Of a stretch of DNA of 64,000 bases, positions 7,831 through 11,540 are shown piece by piece (position 1 is the stretch's first letter; every line of letters begins with the position of its first letter). The notes under the pieces were generated by a model. It saw only the letters and a list, made by a program, of their open reading frames with translations, made no database searches and was not told the origin of the DNA. This DNA is from an uncultured Candidatus Saccharibacteria bacterium (GTDB lineage: Bacteria > Patescibacteriota > Doudnabacteria > UBA920): NCBI GenBank assembly GCA_964631145.1, contig CAZVXT010000001.1, positions 52,969 through 116,968 on the forward strand. The letters run 5' to 3'. The translations under genes were made by a program, and so were the position numbers.

Positions 7831-7915
7831 CTGCTGTTTTTTATACATAAATATTATAAAATTTAGGCAAAAATATTTATGCTAATTAATACTGGATTTT
7901 TTTTGAAGTTTGTAT

Positions 7916-7933
7916 TATAATACCTAAGTATTT
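7916..7933 (+). promoter_or_regulatory. Conserved 18-nt promoter-like motif TATAATACCTAAGTATTT upstream of the tRNA locus (a second identical copy is at 19230..19247)
   Basis: Exact 18-nt repeat containing a TATAAT hexamer, found upstream of two separate tRNA loci. Confidence 0.5.
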
Positions 7934-7940
7934 TTAGTTA

Positions 7941-8025
7941 GCTCGGGTGGCGGAATTGGTATACGCGTACGCTTGAGGTGCGTATGCCCTAGGGCTTGAG
8001 GGTTCGAGTCCCTCCTCGAGCACCA
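7941..8025 (+). tRNA. tRNA-Leu(GAG), type II with long variable arm
   Basis: Cloverleaf with anticodon loop TTGAGGT, T-arm GGTTCGAGTCC and 3' CCA. Confidence 0.85.
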
Positions 8026-8042
8026 GAGATAAAATACAATAA

Positions 8043-8062
8043 GGGCGATTAGCTCAGTTGGC
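8043..8062 (+). pseudogene. Orphan duplicate of the tRNA-Val 5' end (19-20 nt identical to the start of the downstream tRNA-Val); the tRNA-like sequence then degenerates
   Basis: GGGCGATTAGCTCAGTTGG repeated at 8043 and 8160; no T-arm or acceptor 3' half in the following ~100 nt. Confidence 0.5.
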
Positions 8063-8159
8063 GTAGGCGAGCTTTGCGAGCCGTTATTATAGACTCCCAA
8101 AACAAATTACAAATACAAGGAGCTGGAATTTATTTCAGCGACCAAAGAATATAAATTTA

Positions 8160-8236
8160 GGGCGATTAGCTCAGTTGGTTAGAGCGTCTCGTTTACACCG
8201 AGAAGGCCAAAGGTTCGAATCCTTTATCGCCCACCA
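8160..8236 (+). tRNA. tRNA-Val(TAC)
   Basis: Anticodon loop TTTACAC, T-arm GGTTCGAATCC, CCA end. Confidence 0.9.
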
Positions 8237-8251
8237 TAAAAATTACAATTA

Positions 8252-8326
8252 GCCCTGGTAGCTCAGTGGTAGAGCAGACGCCTGAAGAGCGTCGTGTCGT
8301 CAGTTCAATTCTGACCCGGGGCACCA
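8252..8326 (+). tRNA. tRNA-Phe(GAA)
   Basis: Anticodon loop CTGAAGA; cloverleaf; CCA end. Confidence 0.85.
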
Positions 8327-8337
8327 TAAAATATAAC

Positions 8338-8411
8338 GCGGCTATGGTTCAATGGTAGAATTCTTCCTTGCCAAGGAAGGGATAGGGGTTCGATTCCCCT
8401 TAGCCGCTCCA
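8338..8411 (+). tRNA. tRNA-Gly(GCC)
   Basis: Anticodon loop TTGCCAA, T-arm GGTTCGATTCC, CCA end. Confidence 0.9.
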
Positions 8412-8412
8412 A

Positions 8413-8440
8413 ACAAAACCCCCTACAGGGGGTTTTGTTA
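8413..8440 (+). terminator. Rho-independent terminator after the tRNA cluster
   Basis: AAAACCCCCTACAGGGGGTTTTGTT hairpin plus a T-tract; TATAAT of the Nudix gene follows immediately. Confidence 0.7.
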
Positions 8441-8450
8441 TAATTTAAAT

Positions 8451-8855: not shown

Positions 8856-8904
8856 CTACTTTAATTAAATAGCTCCTATATGGGAGCTATTTAATTAAAT
8901 GAAA

Positions 8905-9165
8905 TTATTTATTGTTTTCTTCCATTATAACCCCAAGCTTATCAATTACTTTGTCAGCCGTTTCTTCAGTTTCAAAAGACCAGTAATCATCCGCATTTCC
9001 ATCTTCATCTGATAATAAAATTTCATAGTAACCATCAGCATTTTGTTGTGGCTCCAAGTCCCATGACAAACCAGATTGATCCGCTATACCAAATATCTCT
9101 TGAGCTATTTTATTTATTTCTTCTTCAGATAAATTTCCTTTGTAACTACGAAAGTCTTCGTTCAT
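8905..9165 (-). CDS. Hypothetical highly acidic small protein
   Basis: 86-aa ORF rich in D/E; no recognisable domain. Confidence 0.4.
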   Translation of the reverse strand: MNEDFRSYKGNLSEEEINKIAQEIFGIADQSGLSWDLEPQQNADGYYEILLSDEDGNADDYWSFETEETADKVIDKLGVIMEENNK

Positions 9166-9225
9166 TTTGTTTTCCTATTAATTATATGTATCATACATTT
9201 ATAAATTAATTTATTCAACAATTCC

Positions 9226-9597
9226 ATGCTTAATCAATCAGAAATACTAGAGCTTTCAAAAAGCAATATTATCTTGCCTTTTGAACCAAATTCACTTAAA
9301 CCAGCTAGTTACACCTTTAGACTTGGCGGAAAGACAGAACAGACTATTATTAAACCAAGGGAGTTTAAGGTTTTACAATCACTAGAACAGATAAATTTTC
9401 CAAACAACCTAGTAGGGCAATTGTCTACTAGAGGGTCAATAGCAAAACTTGGGTTAGATTGCTTGCTTACCGATACAGTAATAGAACCCGGGAGTATTGG
9501 GCATTTAAGTTTTTGTACAAAAAATAATTCTACTGAACCAGTCATTTTAAAGCTAGGAGAACCTATTGTTAAATGTATTTTTACCTTAATAAATTAA
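9226..9597 (+). CDS. Minimal dCTP deaminase/dUTPase-fold protein (Dcd-like) with substitutions at catalytic positions
   Basis: NNLVGQLSTRGSIAKLGLDCLLTDTVIEPGSIG aligns with E. coli Dcd [33 protein letters not shown]; only 123 aa, C-terminal tail absent, and the position of catalytic Glu138 reads Cys. Confidence 0.6.
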   Translation: MLNQSEILELSKSNIILPFEPNSLKPASYTFRLGGKTEQTIIKPREFKVLQSLEQINFPNNLVGQLSTRGSIAKLGLDCLLTDTVIEPGSIGHLSFCTKNNSTEPVILKLGEPIVKCIFTLIN

Positions 9598-9912
9598 TAA
9601 GTCAATTTAACTTAAAGATAAGAGCAAAAACATATAATTTGGCTTAAATAAAGTATAAAATGCCAATTTAGCCTTGAAAATAACCTTCGAAACTGGTATA
9701 CTTATCTAGTAAATTACTGCTTTAGGCAGTCTTTTTTAATCAAAGCAAGTCCTGTAAAGGGATAGAAAAACTATTAAAAAAGCCAATAAAACAGTAAATT
9801 TACAGGTCATTTTATCGAGAAATTCATTAAGTCTTTAGCGCAATAGAAAGAATAGTGCTTACGATTGAACCTTTCGGCTTGCGAATCAAGATTAAGGAGT
9901 TGCCTTGAAATA

Positions 9913-10584
9913 ATGAAAGCTAATTTAAATCCAAACACTATCATAGAAAAATTAGTAGTAGTACTAGCTTTTCTACCACTTGTTACAATGGTATATCCAG
10001 AAACAGTGGCTGCTGCATATAATGAAGCGGAAGTGTCTGGGAGACAAGCTATAGTTTTTCAACTCAACTCAAAATCAAAAACAGAAATTGACAATGTATC
10101 CATGTTAACTTATGACCAAGCGGCAGCTGCCGATCCATTGGTAGGAAAAGTTAAAGCTTATTTACAGAGCAAAGGATCACCTTTGGCAATATATGCCGAT
10201 GAAATTGTTAAACAACCACAATGGCAACGTGCTTTAGCTATCAGTTACGTAGAAAGTAACTTTGGTAAGCGTTGTGCAAACAACAACTGTAGCGGTATTG
10301 GTGTAAAACCAGGACACCCGTCTTGGAGAAAATACAACACCAAACTAGATTGGTTTAAAGATATGTCTGCCTTGTTAGAAAAACCAACTTATAAAGAAAA
10401 ATATAAAACCTGTGCCCAAATGAAAGGTGTTTATGTAGTACCTGGAAGCAGCAGGTGGGTAAATGGTTGTAACCAAGTAAGCGGCGAATTACTAACTATT
10501 ACACGTGAAGCAGAACAAGAACGTCTTGCTTTGTCTAACACAAATAATACAGTAGTTGCTGCTACAACTTTGATTGAAAAATAA
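9913..10584 (+). CDS. Secreted GH73-like peptidoglycan hydrolase (N-acetylglucosaminidase family), tentative
   Basis: Signal-peptide-like N-terminus; YVESNFGKRCANNNCSGIGVK resembles the GH73 hallmark E-S-x-x-G ... N-N-x-F-G-I-K; AAGGAG SD 9 nt upstream of the ATG at 9913. Confidence 0.4.
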   Translation: MKANLNPNTIIEKLVVVLAFLPLVTMVYPETVAAAYNEAEVSGRQAIVFQLNSKSKTEIDNVSMLTYDQAAAADPLVGKVKAYLQSKGSPLAIYADEIVKQPQWQRALAISYVESNFGKRCANNNCSGIGVKPGHPSWRKYNTKLDWFKDMSALLEKPTYKEKYKTCAQMKGVYVVPGSSRWVNGCNQVSGELLTITREAEQERLALSNTNNTVVAATTLIEK

Positions 10585-10616
10585 AATGCAAAAGCCGCTA
10601 TAAATTAGCGGCTTTT
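10585..10616 (+). terminator. Rho-independent terminator
   Basis: AAAAGCCGCTATAAATTAGCGGCTTTTGTTTT. Confidence 0.7.
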
Positions 10617-10679
10617 GTTTTATATAATAACTTGAAGAAATTATTTGTTTAAGTTAAAATATGAAAGTATTTAAAAATT

Positions 10680-10754
10680 GGCCGGGTAGCCAAGTGGTAA
10701 GGCAGAGGTCTGCAAAACCTTTATTCACGGGTTCGATTCCCGTTCCGGCCTCCA
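10680..10754 (+). tRNA. tRNA-Cys(GCA)
   Basis: Anticodon loop CTGCAAA, T-arm GGTTCGATTCC, CCA end. Confidence 0.85.
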
Positions 10755-10770
10755 CTAAAAACCAACCCGT

Positions 10771-10857
10771 GCCTGGGTGGCGGAACTGGTATACGCACAG
10801 GACTTAAAATCCTGGGCCCGAAAGGGATTGAGGGTTCGATTCCCTCCTCAGGCACCA
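10771..10857 (+). tRNA. tRNA-Leu(TAA), type II
   Basis: Anticodon loop CTTAAAA, long variable arm, T-arm GGTTCGATTCC, CCA end. Confidence 0.85.
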
Positions 10858-10888
10858 AAAAAGACGTTATTTGATAACGTCTTTTTTA
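10858..10888 (+). terminator. Rho-independent terminator after tRNA-Leu
   Basis: AAGACGTTATTTGATAACGTCTTTTTT. Confidence 0.7.
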
Positions 10889-10940
10889 TTGACACAATAC
10901 AAAATGAGAGCTACAATCTAAAGTCACTATAGGAGGAAAT

Positions 10941-11516
10941 ATGACTGTTCAATATAATAATGAAATAGTGTTAGTTGACATAGATGGGACTAAAGCCAAT
11001 ATTGAAACTTCTTTTGATCCAAAGCTTAAATTAATTTTGCCGAAAGAAATATACGATACCAGAGATCGAAGCAAATACTGGATAGAAGAACAGTTTGATA
11101 AGAAATATCACCAAAAAATTTATGATATTTTTTTACAAGAAGGATTCTTTTTAAACTTAAATCCGATAGAGGGTGCAATAGAAGCAATTCATCAAATGAC
11201 AGATTTGGGATTAGATGTATTAATTTGCACAACACCACATCTTAATTCTAAATTTTGCATAAATGAAAAAATTGCTTGGATAAAAAAATATTTTGGAAAT
11301 GATTTTGAAAAAAGAATTCTGCCGGTGTATGACAAAACGCTAATTCATGGTCAAATCTTAATTGATGATAAACCAGAAATCTCTGGAAGAATTTCCAAAC
11401 CATCCTGGACACATATCATTTTTGACGCTCCCTATAACCAACATATTGATACAAAATACAGAATACGTAATTGGTCTAAGTGGAGAGAAACTGTAGATTT
11501 AATATTAAAGAGCTAG
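10941..11516 (+). CDS. 5'(3')-deoxyribonucleotidase (HAD superfamily, NT5C-like)
   Basis: N-terminal DxDGT motif (VLVDIDGT) and size typical of the 5'(3')-deoxyribonucleotidase family; perfect AGGAGGAAAT SD. Confidence 0.6.
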   Translation: MTVQYNNEIVLVDIDGTKANIETSFDPKLKLILPKEIYDTRDRSKYWIEEQFDKKYHQKIYDIFLQEGFFLNLNPIEGAIEAIHQMTDLGLDVLICTTPHLNSKFCINEKIAWIKKYFGNDFEKRILPVYDKTLIHGQILIDDKPEISGRISKPSWTHIIFDAPYNQHIDTKYRIRNWSKWRETVDLILKS

Positions 11517-11540
11517 CATTTTGCTAGCTCTTCTTTTTTA

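Follow-up and report, generated by a model that had tools for sequence, protein, structure and literature searches.

A tRNA-bracketed chromosome region with two variable gene slots and a GH73-fold hydrolase gene in a Doudnabacteria-like lineage of Patescibacteria

Are genes for nucleotide-pool enzymes and a wall hydrolase that lie between two tRNA clusters the remains of a mobile element, or a part of the inherited chromosome? This question is raised by a stretch of 64,000 nucleotides (nt), called the window below, from an uncultured Candidatus Saccharibacteria bacterium (GTDB lineage Bacteria; Patescibacteriota; Doudnabacteria; UBA920; GenBank assembly GCA_964631145.1, contig CAZVXT010000001.1, positions 52,969 to 116,968 of the forward strand). 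The window is AT-rich (~33% GC). The block between its two tRNA clusters (8412-10679, 2,268 nt) carries genes for a Nudix hydrolase, an acidic protein (ac86), a short protein of the dCTP deaminase (Dcd)/dUTPase fold (mini-Dcd) and a predicted secreted peptidoglycan hydrolase (sec223). The gene of an NT5C-type 5'(3')-deoxyribonucleotidase follows the second cluster. An initial annotation, made from the sequence, identified all five genes correctly and in their right places, and ARAGORN and the Rfam tRNA model (52-76 bits) locate the six tRNAs as it did. It took the block mainly for a phage-derived or phage-defence islet. As described below, the region is likely to be a vertically inherited stretch of the chromosome of a Doudnabacteria-like Patescibacteria lineage, and not an integrated element. 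The hotspot beside tRNAs, the lysozyme-like hydrolase and the Dcd-fold protein are variants of kinds already described.

Conserved framework and variable slots

Seventy-two loci were taken from species-representative genomes, and the window proteins and tRNAs were mapped on them, which gave 46 orthologous loci. Labels of the type L0xx denote fetched relatives of the window; L003 is the complete genome CP064996.1. The gene order in the 46 loci begins at the left end with IF2, RbfA, DHH, tRNA Leu(GAG)-Val-Phe-Gly, a variable interval (slot A) and the hydrolase. It continues to the right end with tRNA Cys-Leu(UAA), a second variable interval (slot B), ribosomal protein S1 on the minus strand, an MBL-fold gene, GyrA and tRNA-Ile(UAU). 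The tRNA-Cys and tRNA-Leu(UAA) genes lie 3' of the hydrolase in all 41 loci with enough downstream sequence, and tRNA-Gly lies no more than 8 kb upstream of it in 24 of 28 loci. The identity of the hydrolase to the window protein is 45-71% (median 53%), and the medians for RbfA and DHH are 55% each. The tRNA bracket and the hydrolase are lineage core: their position is kept, and their divergence is housekeeping-like. Because of this position and this rate, the hydrolase, which had been described as a lysin, is a core gene and not phage cargo, and the interpretation of the whole block as a phage-derived or defence islet or as the remnant of an element is not supported.

Slot A, the interval from the tRNA-Gly terminator to the hydrolase promoter, is 255-6671 nt long across the loci. 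Slot B, from tRNA-Leu(UAA) to rpsA, is 66-6645 nt long. The conserved left anchor of slot A is tRNA Val-Phe-Gly (8160..8411), and the conserved tRNA-Cys/tRNA-Leu(UAA) pair (10680..10857) forms the left edge of slot B. The window's Nudix, ac86, mini-Dcd and NT5C genes are missing from both slots in all 46 representatives. The variable cargo is limited to Nudix, ac86 and mini-Dcd in slot A and NT5C in slot B. Presence/absence polymorphism is seen for these four genes, not for the hydrolase, and their composition is not foreign.

Nearly all slot A open reading frames (ORFs) of other genomes are singletons. Their metabolic and transport genes include HAD hydrolases, methyltransferases, PHO4, IMP cyclohydrolase and SET. 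Defence- or toxin-type genes are also found there: nSTAND3, AAA_15 with OLD-TOPRIM, an AbiEii-like AAA_21, Fic and BrnT, together with a type IIG restriction-modification gene, AAA_13, HNH, Bro-N and SRAP. Slot A elsewhere has further Nudix genes, which are not orthologous to that of the window. In a distant clade (L019-L048), slot B holds a conserved decarboxylase (pyridoxal phosphate-dependent, Orn/DAP/Arg type, ~461 amino acids, aa) and a DUF378 protein (~76 aa). Both were replaced or lost in the window's clade, and nearer relatives have HtrA or assorted genes at this site.

Two relatives with an empty slot (L012 and L035) present the ancestral junction. It consists of tRNA-Gly, a terminator, ~100 nt, an A/T-armed hairpin with a GGCTTAAATAAG box, and the hydrolase promoter. 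The window retains both ends of this junction, the terminator at 8412-8439 and a relic of the hairpin at 9620-9653, and ~1.15 kb of cargo lies between them. This means that the slot would have acquired the ~1.15 kb with three small genes that seem to be transcribed independently, coding for a MutT-like Nudix protein, ac86 and mini-Dcd; slot B would have received the NT5C deoxyribonucleotidase. Each of the cargo genes comes with a terminator or a promoter-like site that belongs to it alone.

The cargo was probably swapped by homologous recombination on the conserved flanks, in which no integrase would take part and to which the homing endonucleases of relatives might contribute. Genes of this kind (LAGLIDADG or HNH) are found between the tRNAs in L003, L005 and L080, and in L003 and L080 a LAGLIDADG gene occupies the spacer between tRNA-Leu(GAG) and tRNA-Val. 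Many genomes have the tRNA-Leu(GAG) gene and the Cys/Leu pair in inverted orientation. In addition, copies of the tRNA-Val leader and 5' end lie as stubs ~120 nt upstream of the true tRNA-Val; L013 has three of them, and L020 and L026 have such stubs as well. This spacer seems to have been rearranged repeatedly and to have kept the stubs as scars. From the homing-endonuclease genes, the recurrent stubs and the inverted tRNAs, the arrays are considered to be prone to recombination without an integrase.

The window resembles tRNA-adjacent islands and integration hotspots in that variable accessory and defence genes lie by tRNAs, between conserved flanks, and are present or absent between species. 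It differs from them in several respects. Neither an integrase nor a duplicated tRNA 3' end of the att type was found. The cargo begins only past the terminator of the tRNAs, not directly at a tRNA 3' end, and it is small (one to three genes) and of native composition. The reading as a variable accessory region flanked by tRNAs is supported: genes turn over at this place, which has defence and toxin genes in other genomes. The block is not one unit.

A mobile element might still have delivered the cargo beside the tRNAs and lost its integrase afterwards, so that the remnant, or an anti-phage module, would manipulate deoxynucleoside triphosphate (dNTP) pools during infection or defence. Slot A is indeed a hotspot that holds defence-type genes elsewhere, the tRNA-Val stubs point to past rearrangement, and the closest Nudix homologs stand beside a serine recombinase (L085) or a methyltransferase and a helicase (L087). 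Matches to PHROG were obtained for the Nudix, Dcd and NT5C families, and Nudix matched a candidate singleton model of PADLOC-DB 2.0 (PDC-S07, E 9e-11). These matches are generic, however; the core "lysin" and ac86 have none in PHROG, and mini-Dcd, NT5C, ac86 and sec223 have none in PADLOC. As the initial annotation had pointed out, no integrase is present among the ORFs in or beside the block (5.9 to 15 kb). The att-like repeats for which it had proposed a search at the tRNA 3' ends were not found: the 3' 25-mers of tRNA-Gly and tRNA-Leu(UAA) have no extra copy at up to 3 mismatches except the paralogous tRNA-Leu(GAG), and a general repeat scan was negative for att, its only long direct repeats being the two paralogous tRNA-Leu genes. 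The GC content at third codon positions is 0.22-0.24 in the cargo, within the core range of 0.19-0.33. The four cargo genes have no close relatives on IMG/VR contigs by a method that detects close relatives only, and Nudix, ac86 and mini-Dcd do not occur together in the other genomes examined. The known dCTP-deaminase defence proteins have a zinc cytidine-deaminase fold and a kinase-like domain, not the Dcd/dUTPase fold. Taken together, these observations make the delivery by an element improbable.

Even less probable is one coordinated, co-regulated module of Nudix, mini-Dcd, hydrolase and NT5C, serving for example wall remodelling together with uptake and processing of host nucleotides. Such a link could be seen in the position of mini-Dcd, for which slot A is the site in each of the five contexts that can be read, two of them (the window and L007) with the hydrolase leader directly downstream, and in the repeated occurrence of nucleotide-related genes (IMP cyclohydrolase, HIT, HAD and Nudix) in slot A of near relatives. 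Against it stands the hydrolase itself, which none of the 46 species representatives combines with any of these genes. The separate terminators and promoter-like signals, with one gene on the opposite strand, also speak against it, and NT5C is cut off from the rest by tRNA genes and terminators.

Two further tRNA genes should be mentioned. A tRNA-Ile(UAU) gene at 19296-19372, 3' of gyrA, is kept across the lineage (L005, L007, L009, L011, L012 and others). A tRNA-Ile with the anticodon UAU is an uncommon bacterial route to reading of the AUA codon. In slot B of CP064996.1 (L003:12845-12918), ARAGORN called a tRNA-like gene with a four-base anticodon (cgtc).

The core hydrolase and its leader

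The best start of sec223 is the ATG at 9913, after AAGGAG. Its family has more than 255 members. The named ones are all from metagenome-assembled genomes of Patescibacteria or Doudnabacteria, and none has a Pfam domain. No match of sec223 to Pfam or NCBIfam was obtained at E<=1, and a search of the PDB with the family profile, up to E<=10, did not pick up any chain of GH73. The fold search alone was informative: it indicated a lysozyme-like fold with GH73 enzymes as the nearest structural neighbours. In the AlphaFold model, which was built with 41 homologs, residues 70-200 form a confident core, mostly with a predicted local distance difference test score (pLDDT) above 90.

Glu114 and Ser115 are invariant in the 41 sequences, as part of a VES motif. 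They are at the end of the helix 104-115, before the strands at 122 and 125. In lysozyme-like enzymes the catalytic acid is usually located at the end of a helix before a β-hairpin. Judging from the model, Glu114 is the putative catalytic residue of sec223. The N-terminus resembles a signal peptide, with a hydrophobic segment at 14-28 and AAA at 33-35, and the protein would be Sec-secreted.

In two relatives (L005:11591-12241 and L007:4214-4879), the gene at the position of sec223 keeps the leader and the first 65 residues with 48-52% identity. Behind them it has a true SLT domain (PF01464, E ~1e-8) instead of the GH73-fold domain, and the ES motif of this domain aligns with Glu114-Ser115. The exchange of a GH73-fold and an SLT domain behind a shared N-terminus suggests that the role of the gene is the cutting of glycan strands. 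The protein sec223 would be a peptidoglycan glycan-strand hydrolase whose fold is closest to GH73.

By fold, sec223 is closest to the GH73 N-acetylglucosaminidases LytB (7pj3), the C. difficile endolysin domain (8yxk), FlgJ (4qdn/5dn5), Acp (5wqw) and AtlA (7qfu). Unlike these enzymes, it has no detectable profile similarity to PF01832, NCBIfam or PDB chains. It has motifs of its own (QWQRALAIS.VESN, NNCSGIG and GVY..PGS..W), and its family was found only in Patescibacteria. It also differs from the SLT/GH23 lytic transglycosylases (PF01464) in giving no SLT profile match, and the two C-terminal domains have no significant sequence similarity to each other. The earlier label "GH73-like" is therefore appropriate for the fold and only putative for membership of the family, and it fails in the sense of a phage-type lysin.

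A paralog is present in the same genomes (L054-L079, e.g. L054:7530-8351). Its GH73-fold domain lies behind a different membrane anchor, and the gene, in many cases a neighbour of tRNA-Glu, has no terminator leader. In L080 (8735-9151), the hydrolase ORF breaks after QWQRA and runs into tRNA-Cys; S1 is also short on this metagenomic contig. Either the catalytic domain was truly lost here or the contig was misassembled.

The leader of sec223 has the same order of elements in all 48 genomes: a near-consensus -35/-10 promoter, a hairpin 10-14 nt farther on, and AAGGAG with the ATG. The hairpin is GC-rich, has 5-9 base pairs and is followed by T5-T7 in each genome, at a distance of 72-253 nt from the U-run to the ATG. 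Hairpins were tabulated by folding each leader singly; MAFFT had offset those of two clades, and RNAalifold on ragged leader windows gave no structure. Pairing is kept in all 15 variants of the arm pair, with clade-level compensatory changes (C-G to G-C and T-A to C-G). The arrangement of promoter, hairpin and T-run is unique within the window.

Farther downstream, the leaders of the 17 nearest genomes have conserved blocks with complementarity to the U-run and to the hairpin's 5' arm. In the window, the A-run at 9775-9781 is complementary to the U-run, and CAGTAAATTTAC to the 5' end and 5' arm of the hairpin. In an alignment of 16 sequences, 97.9% of the cells pair in this long-range form, compared with 40-56% in slid controls. 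Two compensatory pairs, found in the window lineage only, were reached by 4 of 500 shuffles. The minimum-energy fold of the window leader is the long-range form (-43.5 kcal/mol, z -1.95). In the distant clade this pairing is only patchy, and it is claimed for the near clade only.

The leader shares with intrinsic-terminator attenuators and riboswitch platforms a conserved hairpin with a U-run, compensatory changes in the stem and mutually exclusive alternative pairing. In contrast to classical attenuators, the transcript opens with the terminator, and the competitor lies downstream. Since the competitor is downstream of the terminator, it cannot block termination in the classical way; the downstream pairing may instead shape the read-through mRNA, for example by burying its 5' end. 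There is also no Rfam match and no conserved aptamer-like body. A single conserved riboswitch body was rejected because the distance from the U-run to the ATG varies over the range given above. A match of 14 nt to the D-arm of tRNA-Leu, at 9688-9701, overlaps the -10 box; it was treated as chance. The leader is a candidate for a new cis-regulatory element.

In each of the 48 genomes the AAGGAGTT(T)G box precedes the hydrolase ATG by the same 13 nt (region 9894-9915 in the window). This spacing is unusually long for a Shine-Dalgarno (SD) sequence, and the conservation of the box reaches beyond the SD.

Mini-Dcd and the other cargo proteins

Mini-Dcd passes the cut-off of the DCD family PF22769 (E 1.4e-14, 54.9 bits against 27). 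It stays below the dCTP-deaminase equivalog TIGR02274 (60.3 against 92.8 bits) and below the cut-offs of trimeric dUTPases (PF00692, 19.5 against 22 bits; TIGR00576, 16.3 against 102.6 bits). In an ungapped alignment of residues 40-112 with residues 81-153 of E. coli Dcd, Ser111, Arg115 and Glu138 of the E. coli enzyme correspond to Gly70, Lys74 and Cys97. These three E. coli residues are reportedly those of deamination. The Cys at the position of the catalytic Glu138 had already been noticed in the initial annotation, as had the absence of the C-terminal tail, and both are borne out here. Across the mini-Dcd family the Glu138-equivalent position is C, S or E. Glu87 replaces the Asp of the "DPG" motif.

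The closest relatives in both sequence and fold are archaeal Dcd-type dUTPases of 155-156 aa, namely P45 of P. furiosus (9ln0/9ln3) and the T. pacificus enzyme (8y1w). The best phmmer matches were 9ln0 (E 1.4e-12) and 8y1w (E 1.5e-10), at 28-31% identity. The structure model is compact (pLDDT 95) and superposes on Dcd or DCD-DUT enzymes with Foldseek TM values of 0.86-0.92; the first rank is 9ln3 (dUTPase P45, 31% identity), and 8y1w is also among the nearest. The P45-type enzymes share with mini-Dcd the absence of the deaminase Glu, having Met at this position. The difference is at the C-terminus: mini-Dcd stops at the equivalent of residue 128 of the 156-aa P45, so that ~28 residues forming the lid are missing. 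The C-terminal Gly-rich motif (dUTPase motif V) is absent.

Trimeric dUTPases and Dcd enzymes use the C-terminal lid in catalysis. From these sequence features we conclude that mini-Dcd is not a dCTP deaminase. It probably still binds a pyrimidine dNTP. A dUTPase activity is possible but doubtful for a protein that lacks the lid, and mini-Dcd might at best be a weak Dcd-type dUTPase.

Sixteen homologs of mini-Dcd were found. Fifteen are close (52-62% identity) and 122-139 aa long, except for one 161-aa call with an over-extended N-terminus, and all of them end at VKCLF.K.G. The pocket residues Arg69, Ser71, Glu87-Pro88, Gly92 and Asn100 are invariant in the family. Because the homologs are uniformly short, with the same end motif and invariant residues, mini-Dcd seems to be a stable short family and not a fresh truncation. 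A decaying, truncated dcd pseudogene, which the length of 123 aa (155-193 aa in characterised relatives) and the loss of the lid and of the Ser111/Arg115/Glu138 equivalents might suggest, is hard to reconcile with 15 equally short homologs, the invariant pocket and the compact model; as the truncated family is stable and under selection, this explanation is dismissed as highly improbable. The neighbours of mini-Dcd in relatives are an IMP-cyclohydrolase-like gene (L005 and L080) and a Nudix gene (L081). Orthology of the latter with the window Nudix was rejected.

The Nudix protein matches PF00293 (E 2.4e-10, 41 bits against a cut-off of 21.1). Its start was set at the ATG at 8451 (134 aa), and not at that of a 167-aa ORF that opens inside tRNA-Gly, because six homologs measure 131-134 aa. 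The pattern of the Nudix box is GX5EX7REUXEEXGU. Read from the sequence, the box is complete (G34-x5-E40-x7-R48-E49-I50-x-E52-E53) but for the final Gly, which is Asn55. The homologs occur in unrelated and varied contexts, for which reason Nudix is regarded as a floating accessory gene. It should be mentioned that TGTTATAAT, an extended -10 motif in the region 8435-8453, ends 7 nt 5' of the Nudix ATG. An SD is lacking, and this gene may have a leaderless mRNA.

ac86 has a pI of 4.05, with 23 Asp and Glu residues against 6 Lys and Arg. It is a near-orphan: one real homolog cluster was found among 1.84 billion representatives. The sole true homolog (L082:124-1586) is directly upstream of a gene of the DHO_dh family of pyrimidine metabolism, in this single case.

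NT5C matches nearly the full model of PF06941 (E 9.5e-23, 81.4 bits against a cut-off of 24.8). The HAD motif I (DxDxT) reads DIDGT at residues 13-17. The perfect SD ascribed to this gene is indeed present, as AGGAGG 4 nt 5' of the ATG.

Table 1. Features of the tRNA-bracketed region, in window coordinates
Feature	Position	Strand	Basis
tRNA-Leu(GAG), first of upstream array; conserved anchor, inverted in some relatives	7941-8025	+	ARAGORN, Rfam
Stub copy: tRNA-Val leader and its first 19 nt	8031..8061	+	87% identical to 8148-8178
tRNA-Val(UAC)	8160-8236	+	ARAGORN, Rfam
tRNA-Phe(GAA)	8252-8326	+	ARAGORN, Rfam
tRNA-Gly(GCC)	8338-8411	+	ARAGORN, Rfam
tRNA-array terminator hairpin (AACAAAACCCCCT/AGGGGGTTTTGTT), left edge of cargo insertion	8412..8439	+	repeat scan; equivalents after tRNA-Gly in empty-slot relatives
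Nudix hydrolase, 134 aa, slot A cargo 1	8451..8855	+	PF00293
Two-way terminator hairpin common to convergent Nudix and ac86	8863..8896	.	inverted-repeat scan, sequence
ac86, acidic protein, 86 aa, slot A cargo 2	8905..9165	-	ORF
mini-Dcd, 123 aa, Dcd/dUTPase fold without C-terminal lid, slot A cargo 3	9226..9597	+	PF22769
Relic of conserved A/T-armed hairpin and GGCTTAAATAAG box, right edge of cargo insertion	9620..9653	+	intact form stands before the hydrolase promoter of every relative
Promoter-like site TTGAAA-17-TATACT with TG; -35/-10 nearly invariant across relatives	9674..9702	+	alignment
Promoter-proximal terminator-like hairpin (stem 9716-9730, T6 run 9732-9737)	9709..9738	+	folding
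Distal leader blocks (A-run 9775-9781; CAGTAAATTTAC 9792-9803)	9775..9803	+	complementarity
SD AAGGAG of sec223	9894-9899	+	sequence
sec223, GH73-fold peptidoglycan hydrolase (predicted), 223 aa, lineage core	9913..10584	+	synteny, fold search
Terminator of hydrolase gene	10588..10618	+	hairpin scan
tRNA-Cys(GCA)	10680-10754	+	ARAGORN, Rfam
tRNA-Leu(UAA)	10771-10857	+	ARAGORN, Rfam
Terminator hairpin of tRNA Cys-Leu pair	10857-10887	+	hairpin scan
Promoter-like site TTGACA-17-TACAAT for NT5C	10889-10917	+	promoter scan
NT5C-type 5'(3')-deoxyribonucleotidase, 191 aa, slot B cargo	10941..11516	+	PF06941
Ribosomal protein S1, conserved right anchor of slot B	11541..12767	-	profile match, synteny

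Role of the cargo and significance of the region

What could the cargo do for its host? As an alternative, the initial annotation had offered a role in the nucleotide pool or in salvage under reduced biosynthesis, and for the cargo this alternative is preferable. Nucleotide biosynthesis is reported to be missing in Patescibacteriota, which rely on salvage (PMC12911398). Because of this dependence, nucleotide-pool housekeeping would be the most economical interpretation. Most plausibly, Nudix, mini-Dcd and NT5C would clean up and salvage the (deoxy)nucleotide pool of an organism that is unable to make nucleotides. The part of Nudix would be to remove aberrant NTPs or NDP-X compounds and that of NT5C to turn dNMPs into deoxynucleosides; mini-Dcd would bind a pyrimidine dNTP.

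Several points weigh against this picture of an inherited region with exchanged housekeeping cargo. The nucleotide-pool role would follow from family membership only. The lidless mini-Dcd may be non-catalytic altogether, and its residence in slot A could mean a functional link, or an ancestral residence followed by many losses. ac86 is without an assignable function. The turnover of the cargo by recombination is inferred.

A more far-reaching combination can be drawn from the hydrolase, its leader and mini-Dcd, and we regard it as rather unlikely in its entirety. In this combination, sec223 would represent a sequence-novel, Patescibacteria-specific family of GH73-fold autolysins, whose catalytic domain would be exchanged for SLT behind a fixed secretion module. 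The leader would be of a new type, in which the 5' arm and U-run of a promoter-proximal terminator would be captured by the downstream blocks in read-through transcripts. The lidless mini-Dcd would be a non-catalytic sensor or regulator for pyrimidine dNTPs. Some phage dUTPases act as sensors or regulators.

The inherited region with exchangeable cargo has consequences for how such loci are read. It spares a core autolysin and the housekeeping tRNAs of an uncultured lineage an annotation as remains of a prophage or a defence system. Slots A and B would be two precise hotspots with conserved flanks, at which Patescibacteria exchange accessory and defence genes without an integrase; they are useful to pangenome work, and possibly as neutral insertion sites. 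Three items missing from current databases are described here: a wall hydrolase family that is GH73-like at the level of the fold, a lidless family of the Dcd/dUTPase fold, and a leader with a promoter-proximal terminator. The GH73-like family has so far been found only in Patescibacteria (candidate phyla radiation), and wall hydrolases matter to episymbionts that remodel their own wall and perhaps that of the host too.

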